Positions 3,982 to 48,950 of a DNA stretch of 64,000 nucleotides are shown here, piece after piece. Position 1 is the stretch's first letter, and the number at the start of each line of letters is the position of its first letter. The translations under genes were made by a program, and so were the position numbers. The stretch covers positions 1-64,000 of IMG/VR virus record IMGVR_UViG_3300044609_000960. One strand, 5' to 3'. Source of the DNA: a virus. The notes beneath the pieces are model-generated. The model was given only the letters and a program-made list of their open reading frames with translations, was not told the DNA's origin and ran no database searches.

Positions 3982-5883
3982 GTGTCAACAGAAATCATCC
4001 CAGTATCCCTAAAAGAAGAGTTACAGAGTAGTTATCTCACCTACTCCGTGGCAATCTTCAACCGGGCTCTACCCTCTGTCACCGATGGACTTAAGTCCGC
4101 TCAACGCCGAATTATCCTCGGCCTTAAAGATCTCAATCTTCGTCCTGATGGCCAATACAAGAAAGTATCGAGGCTCGAGGGCCATGTCCTCGGCTCGTAC
4201 CACCCGCAAGGCGGCTGCGCTGGTACGGCTATTAATATGGGTCAATCTGATTCTTTTCGGTATCTTCTTACTGACATCCATGGCAACGTTGGAGGTAGTA
4301 TTCAATCCGGGCCGAGCGTCGGTCAATCCATTTCTGAAGACGCTCCGGCAGCTGCAAGATACCTTGAGGTGAAGACTAGCGCCCTCACCCAACGACTCTA
4401 TATCACCGAGATAGATAAGTATAGTTGCCAATGGCGAGATAACTATGACGGCTCGACGAAAGAAGTCATTGAGATTGTCCCTGTTATTCCGGCCCTTCTT
4501 ATCAATGGGGCGCAGGGTATCGCGGCAGGTTACGCCTGCCATCATGTCCCTTATAACCTTTCCGAGGTGATCAAGGGCACTATTGAATATATTAAAAATC
4601 CACGCATTACTCCTAAGCGTCTGTTCTCCTTTATCAAAGGTCCTGATCTACCCAATGGTGCTCGGATTTTAAACGATGAGGCGGTGTTTAATGCTTTTGA
4701 AAAGGGCAGCGGATCTCTCAAGACTTATGGTACTTGGGAGGTAAAAAAAGTCCAACACGGAAAACGGTCTACTCGAGATGCTATTATTATTACCTCTTTG
4801 GCTAGCGGGAGCTCAGAACGCTTCCTTGAAAAACTCAAGGACTCAGTCGAATCAGAAAAAATCGTGGGTGTCATCGATGCCCAAGACCACTCGTCCCGCG
4901 ACGGTATTGAAATCCAAGTCATCCTAAAGACCGGAGTAGAAGCAAATACCGTAATCTCCCAGCTTTTGGCCTTTACTAATCTGGCTGATAGCATCGGCGT
5001 TAACGCCACGGCCATTTCTAGCGGCCTCCCTACCATCTTTGGGGTGAAGGATATCATCGCTGAGTGGTACGGGGCACGGTGCAAGGCCCTAAAGTCTAGG
5101 TATGTGGCTGAATGCGACAAACTTTCTTCCCGAGTCCACATCCTCGACGGCCTTCTAACCATCCTGGCAGATATCGACGAGGTAATTAAACTCATTAGGG
5201 GTTCGAAGACCAAGGAGATCGCGGCTGGGAAGCTTAAAAAGCGTTGGAAGTTGAGCGATATCCAGGTCCAGGCGGTCCTCTCTATGCCTCTCAGCCGATT
5301 GGTGGGGGTAGAACGCCTTGAACTGGAGAGTGAGAAGGCCGATCTTGAGGCAAAAATCGCCAATCTGACCGATATCGTGACAAATCCAGTCAAAATGGAT
5401 GAACATATCATCTCCCAGATCAATGACTTCAAGGAGTTTGTTGATAAGCGCCGGAGTATGTTGGTTGAAAAGCAAGAAATTGGCATTGAGAAAGCCAAAA
5501 TCACCACTCAATCTGGCACACGTAGGGTGAAGATGCCGAGTCCAAAGGATCGGATCAAAGAAGAGGGGAAAAGGATCGGTATGAAGAGGTCGGAGTTGAG
5601 TAAATTCTTCACCCAAATGGCCGGAAAGACCAACATCAAGGCAGAATGGGATCAATTTAAAGAAGATTGGAATCACTCTCAACAACTCTCAACCCGTAAA
5701 GGGCGCGCAGAGCGCAAAATCCTACTCGATAAGATAAAAGAAGGGGCGGTGAAGAAAGGAATGCCATCTAGGGGTAAGCATTCTTGGGCTTCTTTCATGA
5801 AAGAGAGGGAGGATGCTAAGATTAAGAGCATTGAGAATGACCTCAAGGAATGGATGAAGAACATTCCTAAGCTTAGCAAATAA
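3982..5883 (+). CDS. gyrA: Type IIA topoisomerase subunit A (GyrA/ParC-like) with atypical C-terminus
   Basis: RALPSVTDGLKSAQRRI, YHPQG, catalytic AAARY, NYDG, LINGAQGIAAGYA, GPDLP motifs. Confidence 0.92.
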   Translation: MSTEIIPVSLKEELQSSYLTYSVAIFNRALPSVTDGLKSAQRRIILGLKDLNLRPDGQYKKVSRLEGHVLGSYHPQGGCAGTAINMGQSDSFRYLLTDIHGNVGGSIQSGPSVGQSISEDAPAAARYLEVKTSALTQRLYITEIDKYSCQWRDNYDGSTKEVIEIVPVIPALLINGAQGIAAGYACHHVPYNLSEVIKGTIEYIKNPRITPKRLFSFIKGPDLPNGARILNDEAVFNAFEKGSGSLKTYGTWEVKKVQHGKRSTRDAIIITSLASGSSERFLEKLKDSVESEKIVGVIDAQDHSSRDGIEIQVILKTGVEANTVISQLLAFTNLADSIGVNATAISSGLPTIFGVKDIIAEWYGARCKALKSRYVAECDKLSSRVHILDGLLTILADIDEVIKLIRGSKTKEIAAGKLKKRWKLSDIQVQAVLSMPLSRLVGVERLELESEKADLEAKIANLTDIVTNPVKMDEHIISQINDFKEFVDKRRSMLVEKQEIGIEKAKITTQSGTRRVKMPSPKDRIKEEGKRIGMKRSELSKFFTQMAGKTNIKAEWDQFKEDWNHSQQLSTRKGRAERKILLDKIKEGAVKKGMPSRGKHSWASFMKEREDAKIKSIENDLKEWMKNIPKLSK

Positions 5884-5896
5884 AAAGTAACTGGTT

Positions 5897-5929
5897 AAGG
5901 TATAAGTGTTAATAGCTTATACCTTTTTT
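5897..5929 (+). terminator. Intrinsic terminator after gyrA, overlapping a GGTTAAGG motif ahead of agt-glf
   Basis: AAGGTATAAG-loop-CTTATACCTT followed by T-run. Confidence 0.65.
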
Positions 5930-5932
5930 ATT

Positions 5933-7225
5933 ATGTCTAATGCCCCGAAACTACCAAAAGTAGCAATTCTCCTTCTCCGAGGCCTTGAGGGGTGCGGAGT
6001 TAGTAACTATTCCCGCCATATGAAGGGGTATTATGACTCTGTTGGTGGAGTATGTGATATTTTTGCGCTACAAACCAAAGTTGGTAGGTCTGATACCTCC
6101 TCCGACATGGATGTTAAGTTTTTTAAGTACGAAGATAAGCAAGAAGTTGTTGATAAAGTCAATTCTGGGTATGACGTGATTCTCATTTTCTCTGTCCCAG
6201 ACACATCAGAACCTGATACGGTTACAAACGGGTATGTTTCTGAGATTATTGAAAAAATTGACCGTAAAAAAGTAATGGTGAATCATGATCACCATGCCCA
6301 TACATTCAAAAGAAATGCAGATTTTAAAAACGCGATTGAATCGTGCGATAAAGTCATGGCGCATTCACTAAATAAAACAAACTCGGGGTTTATTGAGTGG
6401 ATGGAGAAGCAAAATGCAATTATTCCTCCGATGGAGAAGATCGATATCTTTTTCCATGTCCCATTCATCCAGCATTTGATCAATTTTGAGAAGGATACCC
6501 GCAAAAAACGGATCATCCATGCTAGTAGAGCAGTCGCGTGGAAACGTGGATCACTGATCCTCAATCTGCAAAAACTCCTCGCGGACAAAGGGTTTATCGC
6601 TGAGATGATCGGCTTTGAACGTTCGATCGCTGGCTATACTCAACTTAAAAACTATGAAGGAGTACTTGATTGGTTCAAATCTACTGACTTCATCAAGCCT
6701 ATCAAAGGTCCTTCTCCGTTCTCTAACTCAAAAATAAATAGTCAGCTTATGGATTGGCTCGATGAAGTCGGCCAAAATCCTCAATTTATGTATGTGATTG
6801 GCTCTTATGACTATCATCGTGGCCTGAAGAGAATCGCCGAGTCGGCTTTTGCTACTCAACCGAGAACTTTTGAGCATAATAAACTCTGCTACGGAAACAC
6901 ATTTATCGAGTACCAAGGCATCGAAGCTGCTCTACTCTCAGTTCCTATCTACCACCGCCATTTCTTAGATAATGTCACTGTTCCTAATACAAATACCCTA
7001 CTGAGCCAGACTGACACATTTATCTCTATTGACGATGATGGTAGGGCATTGGCAAAAGGTGGTCCTCAAGTGCTTGAACCAGAGAAGTTTGTAGATCTAC
7101 TCGAAGAAATCTGGGAAGATGACGATAAATATATGGAATATCGCAAGAAGTCTTCTGATTTTATGATGAAGTATTTTTCATCGGCTAGCATTGTCCCTAA
7201 TCTCATGGAAAAAATTATGTCATGA
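5933..7225 (+). CDS. agt: T4 DNA alpha-glucosyltransferase (AGT, GT-B fold) homolog
   Basis: Collinear AGT motifs recalled from T4: RGLEGCGV, SVP, HDH, HS, RAVAWK (T4 RTTTWK), GFERS (T4 GLERS), IEYQGIEA...VPIY (T4 LEYTHLE...IPVF). Confidence 0.85.
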   Translation: MSNAPKLPKVAILLLRGLEGCGVSNYSRHMKGYYDSVGGVCDIFALQTKVGRSDTSSDMDVKFFKYEDKQEVVDKVNSGYDVILIFSVPDTSEPDTVTNGYVSEIIEKIDRKKVMVNHDHHAHTFKRNADFKNAIESCDKVMAHSLNKTNSGFIEWMEKQNAIIPPMEKIDIFFHVPFIQHLINFEKDTRKKRIIHASRAVAWKRGSLILNLQKLLADKGFIAEMIGFERSIAGYTQLKNYEGVLDWFKSTDFIKPIKGPSPFSNSKINSQLMDWLDEVGQNPQFMYVIGSYDYHRGLKRIAESAFATQPRTFEHNKLCYGNTFIEYQGIEAALLSVPIYHRHFLDNVTVPNTNTLLSQTDTFISIDDDGRALAKGGPQVLEPEKFVDLLEEIWEDDDKYMEYRKKSSDFMMKYFSSASIVPNLMEKIMS

Positions 7226-8346
7226 CAAAAGTCCTAGTAGTAGGTGCCGGATTCTCCGGCTCTGTGGTAGCTCGTGAGTTGGCTAGTTTTGGTTGTAAAG
7301 TACATATAATCGACGAGAGGGAGCATATTGCTGGGAACTGCCACACTGAGCGAGATGAAAAAACCAATATCATGGTCCATACTTACGGACCTCATATCTT
7401 CAATACAAATATCCCCAGGGTGTGGGAGTATGTAAATAAGTATGGGGAGTGGGTACCTTATGTCAATAGAGTAAAAGCCTCTATAGACTCTGGAGTCTAC
7501 TCACTCCCTATCAACCTCCATACAATCAATCAGTTCTTCCAGACAAATTTTAATCCAGCGGAAGCTAAAAAATATATCCAAAAGTTAGCTAGCAAAGACT
7601 ATCCTCAACCAACTAACTTTGAGGAGCAGGCTCTTAGCATGATCGGTAAAGGTCTCTATGAAGCCTTCTTCAAGGGATATACTGAGAAGCAATGGGGATG
7701 TAGCCCTACGTCTCTTCCAGCTTCTATCCTCAAACGACTCCCTGTGAGATTTAATTATGACGATAATTATTACAACTCAAAGTGGCAAGCAATTCCAAAG
7801 CATGGATATACCCAAATAGTTCAAAATATCATCTCCCATGAGAACATAACTCTTGAGCTGGGGAGGTCTTGGGATATTTCTGATAATGATAACTATGACT
7901 TGGTGATTTATACCGGACCTATCGACAAATACTTCGACTACTCCCACGGACAACTGGGCTATAGAACTGTATTCTGGGAGAAAGAATATGGCAGAGGAGA
8001 TCTCCAAGGAAACGCAGTTATAAACTACCCATCTACCTACCAACTTTTTACCCGTGTCCATGAGCATAAACATTTCACCCCTTGGGAATCTCATGATCAG
8101 TCAGTGATATTCACAGAGTTTAGTAAGGAAACAGAGCAAGGCGACATCCCCTATTACCCAAAGAGACTCTCAGATGATCTAGAGATTCTCTCCAAGTACC
8201 AAGAAGAGATTGCTAAGCAGACTAAAGTTAAGTTTGTTGGTAGGTTGGCTACTTATCGCTATTTGAATATGGATGCAATAATCTCTGAGGCGCTTGATCT
8301 CTCCGATACCATCAAGGCCAGTTTAAAGATAGATACTATGTCTTGA
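7222..8346 (+). CDS. glf: UDP-galactopyranose mutase
   Basis: GAGFSG FAD motif, GNC, YGPHIF, YTEKQWG, RLPVR, PYYP, GRLATYRYLNMD; ATGA overlap with agt. Confidence 0.95.
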   Translation: MTKVLVVGAGFSGSVVARELASFGCKVHIIDEREHIAGNCHTERDEKTNIMVHTYGPHIFNTNIPRVWEYVNKYGEWVPYVNRVKASIDSGVYSLPINLHTINQFFQTNFNPAEAKKYIQKLASKDYPQPTNFEEQALSMIGKGLYEAFFKGYTEKQWGCSPTSLPASILKRLPVRFNYDDNYYNSKWQAIPKHGYTQIVQNIISHENITLELGRSWDISDNDNYDLVIYTGPIDKYFDYSHGQLGYRTVFWEKEYGRGDLQGNAVINYPSTYQLFTRVHEHKHFTPWESHDQSVIFTEFSKETEQGDIPYYPKRLSDDLEILSKYQEEIAKQTKVKFVGRLATYRYLNMDAIISEALDLSDTIKASLKIDTMS

Positions 8347-8400
8347 TTTCCTGACATAGATGGGTTATAATGATCCCATCGGAAGGTCAATTCCCTCCGA
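8343..8400 (+). promoter_or_regulatory. psbA promoter (TTGATT-17-TATAAT) and 5' UTR hairpin; GTTTAAAG motif at 8321
   Basis: TTGATT 8343-8348, TATAAT 8366-8371, TCGGAAGG/CCCTCCGA hairpin 8379-8400. Confidence 0.65.
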
Positions 8401-8432: not shown

Positions 8433-9515
8433 ATGACAGCTTCTTCAATTGCCCAACAGCGTGTTGGCAATCAGTGGGAACAGTTCTGTGAGTGGATAAC
8501 ATCCACCAATAACCGTCTCTATGTCGGTTGGTTTGGTACTCTGATGATCCCTACCCTCCTTGCTGCAACTGTTTGCTTTATTGTTGCCTTTGTTGCTGCG
8601 CCTCCGGTAGATATTGACGGCATCCGTGAGCCTGTTGCTGGTTCGCTAATGTATGGCAATAACATCATTTCTGGTGCTGTTGTTCCTAGTTCGAATGCAA
8701 TCGGACTTCACTTCTACCCTATTTGGGAAGCTGCTTCGCTAGACGAATGGCTTTACAATGGCGGTCCCTATCAACTGGTGGTTTTCCACTTCCTCATTGG
8801 CGTATTTAGCTACATGGGTCGGGAATGGGAACTTTCTTACCGACTTGGTATGCGTCCTTGGATTTGTGTTGCCTACAGCGCACCCGTGGCTGCTGCTACT
8901 GCAGTGTTCCTCGTATATCCATTTGGACAAGGTTCCTTCTCTGATGGAATGCCTCTTGGCATTTCAGGTACATTTAACTACATGCTTGTTTTCCAGGCGG
9001 AGCATAATATCCTCATGCACCCCTTCCATATGCTTGGGGTGGCTGGTGTATTTGGTGGTTCTCTTTTCTCTGCTATGCATGGATCTTTGGTCACTAGTTC
9101 GCTCGTTCGTGAAACCACAGAAGTAGAGAGTCAAAACTATGGATACAAATTCGGACAAGAAGAAGAGACCTATAACATCGTCGCAGCCCATGGCTACTTC
9201 GGACGTCTCATCTTCCAATACGCATCCTTCAACAACTCTCGCAGTCTTCATTTCTTCCTGGCTGCTTGGCCTGTTGTTGGTATTTGGTTCGCTGCTCTGG
9301 GAGTTAGCACGATGGCCTTCAACTTGAATGGTTTTAACTTTAACCAATCATTGCTTGATAACAATGGTCGCGTAATTAACACCTGGGCAGATATCCTCAA
9401 CCGCGCTGGTCTTGGTTTTGAGGTGATGCACGAGCGTAATGCTCACAACTTCCCTCTCGATCTTGCTGCTGCCGATATGACCCCTGTGGCTCTCAAGGCC
9501 CCGGCTATTGGTTGA
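8433..9515 (+). CDS. psbA: Photosystem II D1 protein, Glu130 high-light type, intronless
   Basis: Full 360-aa D1: [32 protein letters not shown]. Confidence 0.99.
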
Positions 9516-10656: not shown

Positions 10657-10875
10657 ATGTATGAAGATCTAAGCGCATTTGAACGTGCATTGGCTCGATT
10701 TGGTGATAAAGTAGCTCTTATTGCCGGATTAGAAATCGCGGATAAAATGTCCCCAGAAGACGCCTATCAAGAGATCAAAAAACTCTATAAAGGTCTAAAG
10801 AAACTACGTAAGAAAGAACGTAGCATCTGGGAATCGGACAATGACTCTGATGATTTTGAATCAAGTGATAACTAA
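10657..10875 (+). CDS. Conserved cyanophage hypothetical protein
   Basis: FERALARFGDKV...AYQEIK pattern; GGAG RBS. Confidence 0.75.
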   Translation: MYEDLSAFERALARFGDKVALIAGLEIADKMSPEDAYQEIKKLYKGLKKLRKKERSIWESDNDSDDFESSDN

Positions 10876-11512
10876 TGTATTCCCTGACTGGAGGATGACC
10901 AATGAGTTCCCCTCCGGTCTTTCTTTTATGGAGACATCGGGTAATGCCACTATAGTCTCTAGGACTTGGGACGGAGATGGGATCAGAAGGGCAAGATTAT
11001 GCCAATTATCCGTCCCAGAAAAGTTTTATGCAGAGACTTTGGTCATTTATCCATGGGAAATGTCCGAGGCGCCTATATTTGGATGCGAATATCTCCGAAT
11101 TGGTGGGAAAAAGTACTTTGGGGGTATCGATTTCCACCCTCTGGCCCAGACTGATGAGTATTTGAGAGAGTACATTGACAATTATCTCGATGATATGCCC
11201 GATACAGAGGCTGAAACCTCAAAGTTTTATGATTTAAAGCAATACTTTTCACAAAAATTTTGGTTTAAGAAGAAAGGATATGATTTTTATAACAATTTTT
11301 ACTCAACCGCGGAAGAATATCTGGTAAGATATAAGCTTCTACTCGAGGAGATGGAACCAACCCACTCCATGTTAGGACTTCATAAGAAATATGACCTTCA
11401 TATGGGGGATCATGATCCAGCTCATGGGATCTTAAAGGCTTATTTCTCTGAAAAATTTGCTGATTTTTACATTAGAAAGTTTCTTTTTAACTTAATGGAC
11501 GAGGATTTATGA
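10841..11512 (+). CDS. Ferredoxin-dependent bilin reductase, PebA-like
   Basis: IYP..PIFG, DFHPL, YDLKQYFS, YD....HDPAHG...F...FLF match the PebA/FDBR fold. Confidence 0.8.
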   Translation: MTLMILNQVITNVFPDWRMTNEFPSGLSFMETSGNATIVSRTWDGDGIRRARLCQLSVPEKFYAETLVIYPWEMSEAPIFGCEYLRIGGKKYFGGIDFHPLAQTDEYLREYIDNYLDDMPDTEAETSKFYDLKQYFSQKFWFKKKGYDFYNNFYSTAEEYLVRYKLLLEEMEPTHSMLGLHKKYDLHMGDHDPAHGILKAYFSEKFADFYIRKFLFNLMDEDL

Positions 11513-11910
11513 AAGTTATTGTACGATCTGATATTTACGCTCAAATTAAGCCTAAAAAGGTCCTCGAGTTACGTGAATTGGTTAATTCACCTGATAAACA
11601 TTCATATTACTCATTTAAAAACAACGTATCTAATGGATGTGGGTATGATCTCGATCTAGGTGAGCAAGTTTTATACGCTGCCAAGGCTCTTAGATTTACC
11701 AATACAGAAGTCCTCGCTTTTCTAGAAAAATCTATTAAAATCGTAGAAAATACAGAACAATATACTGAATATCTGCTTAATGATACCTTTGGAGAGAAAA
11801 AATTTGTAATAAATCCTCCAGGGACTATTAGATTTTACTCACAAGATCTAATTTGTTTTTATAATGGAAAAAACTGGAGAAAACTTGACAAATCAACTGT
11901 TCACATTTAA
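11509..11910 (+). CDS. Hypothetical protein
   Basis: 133-aa ORF, ATGA overlap. Confidence 0.65.
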   Translation: MKVIVRSDIYAQIKPKKVLELRELVNSPDKHSYYSFKNNVSNGCGYDLDLGEQVLYAAKALRFTNTEVLAFLEKSIKIVENTEQYTEYLLNDTFGEKKFVINPPGTIRFYSQDLICFYNGKNWRKLDKSTVHI

Positions 11911-12694
11911 GTATCCAGGCCGAGAACCCAAATTTCTTGATGAATTTTTAATTCAAAGACCGGATATATTAGATTTCTATATCTATGATGTGAATTTAAC
12001 CACAGGGAGTCTTTTATACCAATCTAAGGGCGGAATTGGGGTGACAAAAGAGCCATATATAGCAAAAATGCATCAGTGGATAAAAACATCTACGGTTTCA
12101 TCCACCTTGTCCCATGCATATACAACTAGATTTAGAGATGATATCGGTAAATGGCGATATATAAAACTCAAAGAGCAATTTAATGAATACGATGATAAAT
12201 TAAGTACGTGGGAGAGATGTGCAGAACTCTATTTACTATGGGTCGGGTCCAATTTTACTCATAGGTATAGAGATAAAGGATATGATGGTATATTTTTCCC
12301 TACAAAGCTTAAAACCGACCAACTTATAAACGCTTCGCTTATAAGTCGCGAGAAAAACCTACTTTTTAGGGAAGAGGATTTCTTTTCCTTTAGAGAAGGT
12401 GTGATAAATGATAATGTTATAATATACGCGCATCTTCCAAGAGAATATGGACGTTTTGGGGCCGGATGGATGTGGAATGAAGCCAAATTCCGCCAATTTA
12501 TAAGAGTTATTAATGAACTCTCAAGCTTAAAAAGGAAAGTATTAATATCCGCCTCATATGAGTTAAGAGGGAGAGTAGATATAGATTATAAACAATATTT
12601 TAAAGAAATGGACCATCTAGTAATTCCAGAGTTTAAAGAATCTAGATTACTCGCTGGTGCTAGTAACTCAGATATATACCTTTTTAACTTTTAA
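11864..12694 (+). CDS. Degenerate Dam-like (D12-class) adenine methyltransferase homolog
   Basis: FKYPG start, DFF...IIYAHLPREY at the DPPY position, W....F...INEL....KVLIS; size matches Dam. Confidence 0.55.
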   Translation: MEKTGENLTNQLFTFKYPGREPKFLDEFLIQRPDILDFYIYDVNLTTGSLLYQSKGGIGVTKEPYIAKMHQWIKTSTVSSTLSHAYTTRFRDDIGKWRYIKLKEQFNEYDDKLSTWERCAELYLLWVGSNFTHRYRDKGYDGIFFPTKLKTDQLINASLISREKNLLFREEDFFSFREGVINDNVIIYAHLPREYGRFGAGWMWNEAKFRQFIRVINELSSLKRKVLISASYELRGRVDIDYKQYFKEMDHLVIPEFKESRLLAGASNSDIYLFNF

Positions 12695-15570: not shown

Positions 15571-16245
15571 ATGGAACTAAATAGACGTTACTTTGGTAAA
15601 ACTATTGTTTTTTGCCTTCCAGGATCTCATTATTCTGGGAGGTTTTTAGTACGATTTACTCAACTCCTACTAGATTGTAGACAAATTGGAATAAATACTA
15701 TCATCTCCCAAGACTATAGTTCCATGGTTAACTACGCTAGGTGTAAAGTAATGGGTGCAAATGTCACCCGTGGCAAGTACCAAGTTCCATTTGGAGGGGC
15801 AATAGAATATGACTACATGATGTGGATTGATAGTGATATTGCATTCACCTCAGCGGATTTTTTTAAACTCCTTGAGCAGGACAGAGATATAGTCTCTGGT
15901 TGGTATATTCAACCCGGAGGATTAACTCCTATTGTTGAAAAAATGGATGATGAATATTTCAAATCTCATGGATATTTTGAATTTATCTCCGAAGATGCCA
16001 TGAGTAAACGTAATTCGCTATTTAAAGCTGATTATGTTGGTTTTGGTTGGGTGCTAATAAAACGAGGCGTGTTTGAATCCATCTCCTATCCATGGTTTGC
16101 GCCAAAACTTATAAAAATAGGTGAAGATTTAGAAGATGTATGTTCAGAAGATGTCTCCTTCTGCATCGATGCAAAAAATGCTGGTTATGACATATGGGTT
16201 GATCCAAAAATCCGAGTGGGCCATGAAAAGGTATTGACCATCTGA
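15571..16245 (+). CDS. GT-A fold glycosyltransferase (cyanophage type)
   Basis: YDYMMWIDSDI (DxD), VGFGWVLIKRGVFE, SEDVSFC, VGHEK; true start lies after tRNA-Pro. Confidence 0.85.
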   Translation: MELNRRYFGKTIVFCLPGSHYSGRFLVRFTQLLLDCRQIGINTIISQDYSSMVNYARCKVMGANVTRGKYQVPFGGAIEYDYMMWIDSDIAFTSADFFKLLEQDRDIVSGWYIQPGGLTPIVEKMDDEYFKSHGYFEFISEDAMSKRNSLFKADYVGFGWVLIKRGVFESISYPWFAPKLIKIGEDLEDVCSEDVSFCIDAKNAGYDIWVDPKIRVGHEKVLTI

Positions 16246-16479: not shown

Positions 16480-17337
16480 ATGAAAAAACTCGTCTCAGCT
16501 ATCGGTGCACTCGGCATAATCGCCCCTGGTGTTGCCACTGCAGCTCCTCAAGGTCAATTCCCCGATGTCCAGCCGACCAACTGGGCGTATCAGGCAATCA
16601 TGAACCTCAAGGATAAGTATGGTTGCGCTGTTGGATTCCCCAATGGTACTTTCCAGCCCGGCGAACCTACCACTCGTGCTCAACTTGCTGCTCTGACTAA
16701 TGCTTGTCTCGATCGCATCGAGGAATATGCAGATGCAAAAGATGCTGCACTTGCTCAGGCTCTCCGTGCCCAATTCGCTGGCGTTGATACTCGTGTAACT
16801 AAACTTGAGCGTATTGCTGCTCAAAAAGCCCAAGGTGTTAACAACTACCTAGGTGCTGGCGTTCTTCTGAATAAGCAAGGTATTGATGGCAATGGTTATA
16901 CTGAAAACCGTACTATCTCTGGTGGTACTGTCCAAGGTCGTTACGCTGTAAAGACCTTTAATAACCAAAATGCTGTTTCTGTCCGTCCTTATGCTAATTT
17001 CGTTGGCACTCCTGCCGGTGAGATTGGAGCAGCAGGTGGTGGTCTTCTCTCTTATGACTGGAGTATCGCCCGTAAAGCTGGCGTAAGCGCCGCTAATATC
17101 TACACCGGTGTCGGTTACCAAGTTCCTTTTGTGAATAATACCGCAGCCAATTTCCAATCTGCTATTGGTGAAAAAGGCCAAGTAATTCTTGCCTTGGGCA
17201 TCGAAGGTCGTCTGACCAATTCCTTGGTTGGTTTTGCTGATCTCAAGTTCCCTACCACCAATGCTTCTAATAGCTACGGTGCAACCAATGGTACCTATTC
17301 CCCTGTATTCACTACTGGTCTCGGTTTCAAATTCTGA
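16480..17337 (+). CDS. SLH-domain outer-membrane beta-barrel protein (cyanobacterial porin-like)
   Basis: Signal peptide; FPDVQPTNWAYQAI...YGC..GFPNGTF...TRAQLAA..NACLD; C-terminal GLGFKF. Confidence 0.85.
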   Translation: MKKLVSAIGALGIIAPGVATAAPQGQFPDVQPTNWAYQAIMNLKDKYGCAVGFPNGTFQPGEPTTRAQLAALTNACLDRIEEYADAKDAALAQALRAQFAGVDTRVTKLERIAAQKAQGVNNYLGAGVLLNKQGIDGNGYTENRTISGGTVQGRYAVKTFNNQNAVSVRPYANFVGTPAGEIGAAGGGLLSYDWSIARKAGVSAANIYTGVGYQVPFVNNTAANFQSAIGEKGQVILALGIEGRLTNSLVGFADLKFPTTNASNSYGATNGTYSPVFTTGLGFKF

Positions 17338-21359: not shown

Positions 21360-24053
21360 ATGTCAAAGTTGAATTCCCTTGGATATGCTGTTCTTTCCGA
21401 TGTGATGAACTCGAGGGTGTTTGGTGAAGGAACAACTCAGACAGAGCCTGATGAAAAGCATCTCAGAAACGTCAAGCAGGAGATGGAGAAGTTTGGCGTA
21501 GAGTTTCCTGTAAAAAATCCCAGCAATTTCTTCATCGAGGACTTTGCTCTACCTGAACTAAAAGCAAACAACATCAAGGATCATTTTGATGCTATCTCCA
21601 AAGAAGTCTGTGGGGATAAAGTTGAATTGATGAAGGATTTTGCTTATACCGAAATCGGTGAAGCACCGGATAAAACTAAATTTTTTCTGTATGCTGGTTG
21701 GGTCAAGTATCCTTTCAATGGCGAACCAGAAGTTGTCGATGGAATCGAAGAGAATATTGCAGTCTATGACTGTGAGACCTTTGTAAAGGGTAGTGACTTT
21801 GGCCATCCCATCTTGGCCACTGCGGTTACTCCTAAGGCATATTATATTTGGATGCATCCCGCGTTCGTAAATAGTAAGACAGAATATAAGCCAATGCTTG
21901 TGCCCATTGGAGGCAGGGATAAGATTCTAGTTGCTCATAACGTAGCATTTGACCGAGCTCGGACTCAAGAAGCCTATGTCCTTGGCAAAACAAATTCTTG
22001 GTTTGATACGATGTCAGCTCATATTAATGTGAGTGGATTGGCCTCTGGTCAACGTTGGTGGTATTTGCAAAAAGCGGCCAAGAAAGCTACCTATAAAGCC
22101 GATCCTATCTGGGCCGATAAGGGATCTATGAATAATCTTATCGATTGTTATAACTTCCATTGCCAGCCAATGGTCCCTCTCGAGCAAGAAGATAAAAAGA
22201 TCCGAAATATCTTCGTAGATGCCAATTCCATGGAGGAATTTGTTCCCGAACGAGATGATCTTATTGCCTATGCTCTTAACGACGTAAAAATCACCTTTGA
22301 ACTATATTCCATTCTATTCCTCAAATACCTTCAAAATAATCCGTCATTAACGACTCTTGCTGGCCATTTTGGTATCTCTTCTGCTCACCTTCCGGTAGTG
22401 AGTGATTGGGAGAAGTGGTTTGATGATTGTGAGAAGCAATGGGAAACTTCGCTCTCCCGCCAAGAAGAGATCCTTTGCAAAATGGCCGAGGAGGTGTATC
22501 AGTCTTGGAATGAAGGAGAGATTACTGATGAAGATATTAAAGCAGATCCATGGCTCTCCCAACTTGACTGGGAAGCAAACTTTAAACTTACAAAGGCTGG
22601 GAAACCCAGCTCGAAGTGGTACGGAGTGCCTAAGTGGGTGAGGAGCGTATCTGCTAAAGACCTCATCGATGGCAAACCTATAATCCAAGACATCTCAACC
22701 AAAAACCGCCTATCCCATCTCCTCCTCCGTCTCAAGTGGAATGATCAACCTCTGAAGTTTTTCACTGATAAAGGTTGGTGCTTCATGGACGAAGATCTTG
22801 GGGACTATGTACGTATCCCTCATACTGATGGGGAAGGAGTTAATGTCGGAGGAGTATTAACCAAAGATTATGCTGAGGATTTCGAATCTGGGCAATTAAG
22901 TTCCGATCTTCCTGAGGCAAAAGAACTCATCAAACTTGCAATTAATGTGGCATACTGGACTTCGGTAAGGAGTCGTGTGAGGGAACAACTCGTAGAGGAG
23001 ATCAAAACGCCACAGGGAAATAAGTTTAAGATGATTGTTCCCGCCGCAGTTCCTCATAACACTTCGACCAATCGCGCCGGGGAGAATCTTTGGTTGACTG
23101 TTCCTGATCCGAAATATGACAAGATCGGTAGTGAAATCAAGACTCGTGTCCAAGCACCTGAGGGCTATGTATTTGTCCAATCCGACTTCGACGCCCAAGA
23201 GGCAGTAGTTGCGTCGATCTTTGCCGACTCATATCACAAGATTGCCGGAAGCACACAATTTTCCCACTCAATTCTCGCTGGGTCTAAAGATGATGGGACG
23301 GACATGCATTCCATGACTGCAAAAGCTATTGGGATCTCTAGGGCTATTGCAAAGGGATGTAATTATGGCATGTTGTACGGGTGTGGGGCTAAAACTCTTG
23401 CAAATACAATCCGCAAGGGAAACAAAAATATCCCAATGAAACAAGCAGTTGAGATGGGAAATAAACTCATTAAAATTAAGAAGGGTACTAAGGCCTCTAG
23501 TGTCTCTCAGACACTTATCGGTGGTTCTGATTCCTATGCTTACAATGAAATGGCACGTATTGCCAATCTTCCCTCTCCCATTAATCCTCTAAGTGGTACA
23601 AAGATGTCCACGGCCTTCCGCCCGACATCTGTTGGCACTGATTTTTGGACCATGCGTAACAACTGGTGTATTCAATCCACTGGTAGTGCTATGCTCCATG
23701 CCTTCATGACTGCCATGGAATGGTTGATTGCAGAGTATGAACTGGACGCTGAGTTCTGTATGTCAGTTCATGACAGTATCCTGTATCTCTGTCCAGAGTC
23801 CCAGGCTGAGGGGGTTGCAGCTTTGTTCCAAGTAGCTCATGCTTGGTGCTGGGCTTGGATGAGGTATAACTACGGGATCTATGAACTTCCAGTAGCAAAT
23901 GCCTGGCTCTCTTCTATTGAGATCGATAAAATCTTCCGTAAAGCTGCCACTGCGAACACTAAGACCGTTTCTCAGCAAAAATCCGAACTTGATGGTGAAT
24001 CTCGAACCATCCAAGATCTCATCCCAATTTTCAACTCTATGTTTACAAAATGA
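21360..24053 (+). CDS. Family A DNA polymerase, mitochondrial Pol-gamma-like
   Basis: Exo DCET, HNVAFDRAR, YALND; IPHTDGEGVNVG, IGSEIKTRVQAP, motif A DFDAQE, GTDMHSMTA, motif B ISRAIAKGCNYGMLYG, NWCIQS, motif C VHDS. Confidence 0.93.
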   Translation: MSKLNSLGYAVLSDVMNSRVFGEGTTQTEPDEKHLRNVKQEMEKFGVEFPVKNPSNFFIEDFALPELKANNIKDHFDAISKEVCGDKVELMKDFAYTEIGEAPDKTKFFLYAGWVKYPFNGEPEVVDGIEENIAVYDCETFVKGSDFGHPILATAVTPKAYYIWMHPAFVNSKTEYKPMLVPIGGRDKILVAHNVAFDRARTQEAYVLGKTNSWFDTMSAHINVSGLASGQRWWYLQKAAKKATYKADPIWADKGSMNNLIDCYNFHCQPMVPLEQEDKKIRNIFVDANSMEEFVPERDDLIAYALNDVKITFELYSILFLKYLQNNPSLTTLAGHFGISSAHLPVVSDWEKWFDDCEKQWETSLSRQEEILCKMAEEVYQSWNEGEITDEDIKADPWLSQLDWEANFKLTKAGKPSSKWYGVPKWVRSVSAKDLIDGKPIIQDISTKNRLSHLLLRLKWNDQPLKFFTDKGWCFMDEDLGDYVRIPHTDGEGVNVGGVLTKDYAEDFESGQLSSDLPEAKELIKLAINVAYWTSVRSRVREQLVEEIKTPQGNKFKMIVPAAVPHNTSTNRAGENLWLTVPDPKYDKIGSEIKTRVQAPEGYVFVQSDFDAQEAVVASIFADSYHKIAGSTQFSHSILAGSKDDGTDMHSMTAKAIGISRAIAKGCNYGMLYGCGAKTLANTIRKGNKNIPMKQAVEMGNKLIKIKKGTKASSVSQTLIGGSDSYAYNEMARIANLPSPINPLSGTKMSTAFRPTSVGTDFWTMRNNWCIQSTGSAMLHAFMTAMEWLIAEYELDAEFCMSVHDSILYLCPESQAEGVAALFQVAHAWCWAWMRYNYGIYELPVANAWLSSIEIDKIFRKAATANTKTVSQQKSELDGESRTIQDLIPIFNSMFTK

Positions 24054-48539: not shown

Positions 48540-48950
48540 ATGAAGCCTGAATTAATCGATGCTTATATGGATATTGCAGAAAGATTTGCTCAGGTTTCTA
48601 AATGTAATAGGCTTAAAGTAGGTGCTATAATTGTTAAAAACGGATCGATTTTGGCTCATGGGTGGAATGGAACACCTAGTGGATATAGGACTAATTGCTG
48701 CGAAGATGAGAATGGAGTAACATCTCCATTTGTTCTACATGCAGAGCAAAATGTCCTTGTTAAGATGGCAAAATCAACAGAGTCTATTGAAGGAGCCGAA
48801 TTGTTTTGCACCCATTCACCGTGTTCTGAATGCTCAAAGCTTCTTGCGCAGAGCGGAATTAAAAAGGTATATTTTAAACATAAGTATAGAATCACAGAAG
48901 GGATCGAAGTTTTAAACGCACTTGGTGTAGAGACTCAGGAGGTCCCATGA
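48540..48950 (+). CDS. dCMP deaminase
   Basis: S.C.R.KVGA, GWNGTP, HAEQN, THSPCSEC. Confidence 0.92.
   Translation: MKPELIDAYMDIAERFAQVSKCNRLKVGAIIVKNGSILAHGWNGTPSGYRTNCCEDENGVTSPFVLHAEQNVLVKMAKSTESIEGAELFCTHSPCSECSKLLAQSGIKKVYFKHKYRITEGIEVLNALGVETQEVP

Follow-up and report, generated by a model that had tools for sequence, protein, structure and literature searches.

A candidate exchangeable cassette for furanosylation of phage DNA, pairing an AGT-fold glycosyltransferase with a UDP-galactopyranose mutase in a TIM5-like cyanophage

Why would a virus place a gene for a UDP-galactopyranose mutase (Glf), an enzyme that normally serves surface glycans, directly behind one for a homologue of the DNA alpha-glucosyltransferase (AGT) of phage T4? 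The two genes, agt (5933..7225) and glf (7222..8346), both on the plus strand, lie in the first 64,000 nucleotides (hereafter the window) of IMG/VR virus record IMGVR_UViG_3300044609_000960. This virus genome of 159,262 bp, rated complete and carrying 127-bp inverted terminal repeats, is that of a cyanophage related to S-TIM5 (Aurunvirus): matches in S-TIM5 or S-TIM54 exist for 103 of its 169 open reading frames (ORFs), and the gene order topoisomerase-agt-psbA is common to this genome and S-TIM5. An original prediction, made from the window's sequence alone, held that Glf supplies a UDP-furanose which the AGT homologue places on a hydroxylated DNA base. The analysis reported here leads to a related reading that we hold to be fairly probable: TIM5-like cyanophages would share a core DNA-hypermodification pathway, of which agt plus glf would be one interchangeable 'sugar allele', and in this phage we infer that a furanose, probably galactofuranose (Galf), is placed on a modified pyrimidine, probably 5-hydroxymethylcytosine (5hmC).

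The AGT homologue and its overlapping mutase gene

The agt ORF encodes 430 amino acids from an ATG start that is common to the relatives L002 and L005. The T4 AGT motifs listed in the prediction are all present and in order (RGLEGCGV at residues 16-23, SVP at 87-89, HDH at 118-120, R199 followed by W203-K204, ERS at 229-231, and E326-Y327 followed by E331), and alignment with the phage T2 enzyme equates H118/H120, H144, R199/K204 and E326/E331 with its H114/H116, H140, R204/K209 and E306/E311. Profile searches matched the protein to the PHROG 2888 alpha-glucosyltransferase family (E 1e-86; the family may include S-TIM5 orthologues) and to Pfam AGT (PF11440, E 4e-5, 23.4 bits where the curated cut-off is 25), and by sequence it matched T4 AGT (1y6f) with an E value of 2e-11; its identity to T4 AGT is 17-24%. 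The structural comparison with T4 AGT that the prediction had proposed agreed with this assignment. With an AlphaFold model of high confidence (pLDDT 93) as query, the nine best Foldseek matches in the PDB were all T4 AGT chains (TM 0.75-0.81), with structural E values of 1e-22 to 1e-19 compared with 8e-11 for the next GT-B enzyme, a gap of about ten orders of magnitude. In its predicted structure the AGT homologue thus shares the fold of T4 AGT, a GT-B enzyme that transfers glucose from UDP-glucose to 5hmC in DNA with retention of configuration. Profile, sequence, structure and tree together place the product of agt as a T4-AGT-fold DNA glycosyltransferase homologue of the glf-linked clade described below.

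The glf ORF is, as had been claimed, intact: its frame is full-length and overlaps the agt stop by the four bases ATGA (7222-7225). Its product is a flavoenzyme of the UDP-galactopyranose mutase (UGM) family (PF03275, E 2e-71, 240 bits against a cut-off of 26.3) with both the FAD-binding motif and the GLF domain, and it matches Klebsiella UGM over its full length (E 4e-138). Active-site residues R172, R278, W158, Y153, Y183, Y312, Y347, N82, N268 and E299 are kept.

agt and glf appear to be exchanged together

agt is a core gene of the lineage, with psbA mostly directly downstream (about 90 loci). When AGTs were clustered at 90% identity, 18 types had no partner gene, eight were linked to glf and one was linked to an epimerase gene. 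In all eight clusters of the glf clade glf directly follows agt with the four-base overlap, which was the case in none of the 18 partner-less clusters, and every examined AGT at least 61% identical to that of the window has glf behind it even where the downstream genes are wholly different. The glf-linked AGTs (61-99% identical) form a single clade (support 100/100), and the epimerase-linked AGTs form a separate one (98/94). No glf was found anywhere in the complete genomes of S-TIM5 and S-TIM54, though both carry agt. The linkage of AGT homologues to glf that the prediction called for thus holds in a narrower form: glf is missing beside most homologues, but a single AGT clade is never without it and moves with it.

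Evidence for movement comes from the gene on the left flank, which encodes a topoisomerase II/IV subunit A (3982..5883, plus strand) and whose tree conflicts with that of agt. In the topoisomerase tree, loci with and without glf are sisters (L055 with L060, support 100/100; L005 with L045 and L068, 98/95), and a tree in which the glf loci were held together was rejected (approximately unbiased test, p = 0.00013). Because the tree of the adjacent gene rejects the grouping of glf-linked AGTs, we conclude that agt and glf move as a cassette. Indeed, the DNA of L005 and L045 is 88% and 92% identical in the flanks while agt barely aligns (one patch of 66%), and identity picks up again at 92% around 8343-8371. 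Distances between glf genes also follow those of agt (rho 0.74) more closely than those of the topoisomerase gene (rho 0.48), the pairs not being independent. These results agree with the predicted two-gene unit beside the topoisomerase gene, in that each transferase variant is exchanged at a fixed site jointly with the enzyme for its sugar nucleotide, with the topoisomerase gene outside the cassette. In the second AGT clade the slot of glf is taken by a gene for an NAD-dependent sugar epimerase/dehydratase (L006:6266-7174, L007:5150-6061 and L058) with the same ATGA overlap, and the epimerase-linked agt likewise moves between topoisomerase backgrounds. Several partial contigs that bear the ThyA gene described below and no agt are fragments and are uninformative on the absence of agt. 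The agt frames of L077, L094, L095 and L096 are split or short, which may reflect assembly errors or true breaks.

Changes in the probable donor loop

At 18 positions the glf clade has a fixed state of its own; these include T323, I330, Q309, T312 and a one-residue insertion, I325, right before E326. Codons 323-331 (6899..6925, plus strand), which include T323, I325 and I330, align with residues 304-311 of T2/T4 AGT, such that E326-E331 correspond to E306-E311; we take this loop, by analogy with retaining GT-B enzymes, to bind the donor sugar. Among close relatives the insertion is confined to the glf-linked clade, and in the epimerase-linked AGT of L006 a Phe replaces the Tyr of the loop. The glf-linked clade thus seems to have a changed probable donor loop and, given that change, it is doubtful that glucose is its donor. 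Phage DNA glycosyltransferases that adjoin an epimerase have been shown experimentally to need that epimerase (bioRxiv 10.1101/2023.12.21.572611), the same logic as that of an agt with a sugar-nucleotide partner gene.

Candidate genes for the acceptor base

The prediction had located no enzyme for the acceptor base in the window and proposed looking for one in the rest of the genome. There, a dCMP-type ThyA homologue and a C5-cytosine methyltransferase were found and a TET/JBP oxygenase was not. The ThyA homologue (genome C1:135951-136787, plus strand; L008:9952-10788) has an invariant C-P-P-C at the active site and carries Asp (D191) where the E. coli enzyme has Asn177, a replacement that is invariant in 13 relatives and that PMC13326640 describes as a mark of dCMP use. 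It keeps Asp169 (as D183), where RL38JI gp216 has Asn; a role as 5-hydroxy-dCMP synthase is excluded by this retention. A predicted structure of the protein was poor (pLDDT 59.5). Also beyond the window are an intact second thymidylate synthase, ThyX (C1:157829-158617, plus strand; L111; PF02511, E 8e-50), the methyltransferase gene (C1:134047-135261, minus strand), and genes resembling a deoxynucleoside monophosphate (dNMP) kinase (C1:102043-102612, plus strand) and a nucleotide pyrophosphohydrolase (C1:131929-132417, plus strand), the last two on weak family matches (PHROG 761, E 1e-5, and PHROG 12184, E 1e-6, respectively). Within the window, a dCMP deaminase (48540..48950, plus strand) is a possible member of the nucleotide pathway. 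A CmoX-like identity was also considered for the methyltransferase and seems unlikely, the Asn at the HhaI N304 position being kept by eye and a PDB match being absent. Profile searches of the genome with epimerase, GT1, GT2 and TAGT families found none.

These pathway genes are scattered in this genome but clustered with agt in two distant relatives. In L133 (1917-8725) the pyrophosphatase (67% identical), the methyltransferase (31%, overlapping agt), agt, the kinase (31%) and an N177D ThyA homologue (38%) are packed within 7 kb, together with a 185-amino-acid ThyA-like protein (catalytic Cys, Asp177) and a 331-amino-acid protein without assignment. In L134 (374-4348 of a 4.7-kb contig) a second GT-B enzyme, agt, the kinase and an N177D ThyA homologue stand in a row. 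Both are candidate complete hypermodification operons, and nothing else speaks as strongly as their clustering for action of the AGT homologue on a modified DNA pyrimidine. S-TIM5 has the same set of ThyA, ThyX, methyltransferase, kinase and pyrophosphatase. We lean slightly towards 5hmC as the most likely identity of that pyrimidine.

Conflicting evidence and alternative explanations

Several observations weigh against a galactofuranosylated 5hmC. Position 143 of the ThyA homologue is occupied by an invariant cysteine (Cys157) and not by the acidic residue of T4-type hydroxymethylases; Leu stands here in methylating and Asp or Glu in hydroxymethylating enzymes, and by the rule of PMC13326640 the protein is not predicted to be a hydroxymethylase. 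It is also nearer to methyl-forming enzymes (Xp12, 25% identity, E 2e-20; T2 gp42, E 7e-4). Searches of the complete genome for TET/JBP or other 2-oxoglutarate-Fe(II) enzymes (PF12851, PF13640, PF13759) returned none at E 1, although a very divergent enzyme could escape them, and a methyl product would therefore leave the AGT homologue without a handle. S-TIM5 DNA is reported to be 'methylated' only at cytosines after purines, a pattern that the methyltransferase would explain and that fits poorly with full replacement of cytosine by 5hmC; in dinucleotide and third-codon tests, purine-C was depleted in this genome (AC 0.82, GC 0.88), a depletion that S-TIM5 does not show consistently. The sugar pocket of Glf has Asn at the positions of Klebsiella UGM His63 and Asp351, both fixed in the phage Glf clade, and the substrate may therefore not be galactose; further UGMs in the databases, one of them from Cyanobium, also show these changes. 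Finally, the link between agt and glf arose once and so represents one evolutionary event, not many independent ones; despite this single origin, its weight appears to lie in its retention through divergence and several moves. As to the base, the gene for the methyl-forming enzyme of Xp12 lies near a DHFR gene and a family search of the present genome for DHFR was negative, a difference that leans weakly towards a hydroxymethyl product. The ThyA homologue fits no published product rule, and its combination of Cys143 and Asp177 suggests an apparently undescribed synthase subfamily.

Some of these points would be accommodated if the handle were 5-hydroxymethyluracil (hmU), or if purine-C sites were modified by the C5-methyltransferase homologue and an undetected oxidase, variants within the preferred reading that we consider somewhat unlikely. 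The phage dCMP deaminase could deaminate a modified dCMP, and T4 AGT has been bound to hmU DNA in crystals (PDB 1y8z and 1y6g, by their entry titles), but ordinary dTMP would be supplied by ThyX. A site-specific base agrees with the purine-C pattern reported for S-TIM5 and with the overlap of methyltransferase and agt in L133; it sits less well with the missing TET/JBP match and with the 4.7-kb contig of L134, where agt, kinase and ThyA homologue are grouped with no methyltransferase in view. A different product of the mutase, L-arabinofuranose, N-acetylgalactofuranosamine (GalfNAc) or fucofuranose, is another variant within the preferred reading and is unlikely. UGM-family mutases do act on the sugar nucleotides of L-arabinose, N-acetylgalactosamine and fucose, and the two fixed Asn replacements in the phage clade would suit such a substrate, but the remaining active-site residues are all as in Klebsiella UGM and no phage epimerase was found, so that the donor would come from the host pool, of which UDP-galactose is the likeliest.

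It is also conceivable, if quite unlikely, that glf is carried along as a passenger or feeds a different glycosylation (through the GT-A-like gene at 15571-16245, on virion proteins or on host surface glycans) and that the AGT homologue uses UDP-glucose. The usual role of Glf in surface glycans, the lack of glf beside most agt genes of the lineage, the single origin of the linkage and the GT2-like gene in the window are all compatible with this. The GT-A gene, however, is 68% identical in S-TIM5, which has no glf, and so does not track glf; a passenger would leave unexplained why glf keeps to one AGT clade across cassette swaps and large divergence, and the donor-loop insertion is found, among close relatives, only in that clade. 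That the AGT homologue furanosylates a protein, a nucleotide or a small molecule and no longer DNA we regard as improbable. Its identity to T4 AGT is 17-24% and GT-B enzymes readily switch acceptors, but structurally no other GT-B enzyme comes nearly as close to it as T4 AGT does, and in L133 and L134 agt has pyrimidine-modifying genes for neighbours; fold and gene neighbourhood together make such an acceptor unlikely.

Proposed mechanism and relation to known systems

Under the preferred reading, that of a furanose on a modified pyrimidine, the dCMP-type ThyA homologue, the dNMP kinase and the pyrophosphatase would put a hydroxyl-bearing pyrimidine into new DNA. Glf, whose family is clear, would contract a host UDP-pyranose, most likely UDP-galactopyranose, to the furanose. 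The AGT homologue, which has the T4 AGT fold and is presumably translated jointly with Glf from a transcript that starts at a probable late promoter, would then flip out the base and attach the furanose to it, probably retaining the configuration, as T4 AGT does. The new sugar could evade host enzymes that read one particular glycosyl-base while keeping protection against ordinary nucleases. In relatives the slot of glf holds either no partner, in which case a host sugar such as UDP-glucose would presumably be used, or an epimerase. A bolder version, which we put forward tentatively as something less than probable, is that the DNA of TIM5-like cyanophages contains a glycosylated pyrimidine so far undescribed, whose synthesis runs through a new ThyA subfamily (N177D, C-P-P-C) and whose sugar is rotated by swaps of the agt cassette. 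The present allele would then give a galactofuranosyl base that itself awaits chemical description, installed by an AGT-fold enzyme, and the 'methylation' reported for cultured S-TIM5 would be only part of its DNA chemistry.

The nearest counterpart is the alpha-glucosyl-5hmC pathway of T-even phages (T4 gp42, gp1, gp56 and AGT; PDB 1y6f), which has in common with the present system the AGT fold and motifs, a dCMP-type synthase homologue, kinase-like and pyrophosphohydrolase-like genes and, as proposed here, sugar transfer after replication. In contrast to it, the window phage is not T4-like, its AGT is 17-24% identical, its synthase is ThyA-like with Cys in place of Asp at position 143, and it adds a C5-methyltransferase, a furanose donor predicted to be made by Glf and an exchangeable cassette of transferase and donor enzyme. 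Subclass II clusters of C5-methyltransferase, TET and glycosyltransferase genes (bioRxiv 10.1101/2023.12.21.572611; PMC8256090) likewise have an adjacent sugar-nucleotide enzyme, required there, and a C5-methyltransferase in the genome, but the partner is an epimerase and not a mutase, and no TET was found here; bioRxiv 10.1101/2023.12.21.572611 never mentions a mutase. The orthologue in S-TIM5, gp011 ('DNA alpha-GT'), is 55% identical and occupies the same topoisomerase-agt-psbA position, but it is a partner-less allele without glf, and its role is an annotation for which we found no function test.

With respect to the sugar, the statement in the prediction that no Galf-modified base has been described holds to the extent that our literature search turned up no published proof of a DNA base bearing galactofuranose; the novelty was overstated, however, since related chemistry appears in PMC13326640. 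According to that paper, RB69 and DLP3 carry D-arabinofuranose on 5-hydroxycytosine, proven by NMR. They thus offer a furanose on a phage cytosine, as is proposed here, but on 5-hydroxycytosine and with a proposed supply by an isomerase and a nucleotidyltransferase in place of a mutase. PMC13326640 also reports that RL38JI (Pootjesviridae) has galactose, base-proximal, on 5-hydroxycytosine, and its authors propose that a phage mutase, 40% identical to the present Glf, supplies UDP-Galf to a DNA glycosyltransferase; the furanose ring form there is a proposal. In RL38JI, unlike here, the base comes from a D169N synthase (PMC13326640), a change absent from the window phage, and some 60 kb separate the mutase gene from the gene for transferase gp215; Rhizobium phages were not among the matches listed for the AGT query. 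What we did not find described are an AGT-fold partner of a mutase, such a system in the TIM5 lineage, an exchangeable cassette with three alleles and a synthase subfamily that combines Cys143 with Asp177.

Besides Pootjesviridae, glf is present in T4-like phages of Aeromonas and Erwinia. In two cultured members, Aeromonas phage Aes012 (L124:4953-7135) and Erwinia phage FBB1 (L125:4953-7078), motA is followed by glf and then by a gene for a conserved protein of 353-358 amino acids (PHROG 14998), which had neither a Pfam nor a PDB match and is possibly a transferase partner.

Should the preferred reading be correct, the known phage DNA modifications would gain a furanosyl base, together with a furanosyltransferase of the AGT fold, and the three natural agt alleles (no partner, epimerase, mutase) would make sugar identity an exchangeable allele in natural cyanophages, as expected where defences such as Brig1 (PMC11078745) act on particular sugars. 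Hydroxymethylated bases might, in addition, be labelled with a furanosyl-DNA transferase.

Flanking control sites and other features

The gap between the topoisomerase gene and agt contains a promoter-like motif, GGTTAAGG (5893..5900, plus strand), which is a variant with two mismatches of the lineage motif GTTTAAAG. An ORF begins 25-60 nt downstream of 24 of the 34 copies of GTTTAAAG (2.4% expected), many of these ORFs being structural genes, and GTTTAAAG or GGTTAAAG is found at the equivalent position upstream of agt in most relatives. The GTTTAAAG-type motif is probably a late promoter. An 11-bp hairpin followed by a T-run (5897..5925, plus strand; -12.6 kcal/mol) is a probable terminator; L005 shows one compensatory change in it, and the hairpin is not general across the family. 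The terminator and motif predicted upstream of the pair are therefore both present, but the hairpin overlaps GGTTAAGG and does not precede it. We infer that the hairpin would stop read-through from the topoisomerase gene and that agt-glf would have its own, probably late, start. The predicted psbA promoter downstream of the pair corresponds to a sigma70-like site (8343..8371, plus strand) at the right flank of the cassette, ahead of psbA (8433-9515), but such sites are no commoner than expected by chance (14 against 12.6), and the same is true of hairpin and T-run sites (3 against 5.1).

Elsewhere in the window, the GT-A-like protein (15571-16245) belongs to PHROG 1574, has Atlas neighbours that include GT2-labelled viral clusters, and is conserved in S-TIM5. 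A 276-amino-acid protein (11864-12694), conserved in S-TIM5 at 29%, looks by eye like a degenerate Dam-type methyltransferase; it had no Pfam or PHROG match, and a PF02086 search was negative. The window also encodes an S-TIM5-type DNA polymerase (21360-24053, PHROG 22619). A ferredoxin-dependent bilin reductase (10841-11512, PF05996) was not found in S-TIM5, nor was a protein (16480-17337) that starts like a signal peptide, contains an SLH-like segment, ends in Phe and by eye resembles cyanobacterial porins. Between 24183 and 36676 about 30 short ORFs follow one another, almost none of them shared with S-TIM5. The four most depleted tetramers of the genome are all palindromes, TGCA, CATG, AGCT and GTAC, at 0.73-0.80 of expectation.

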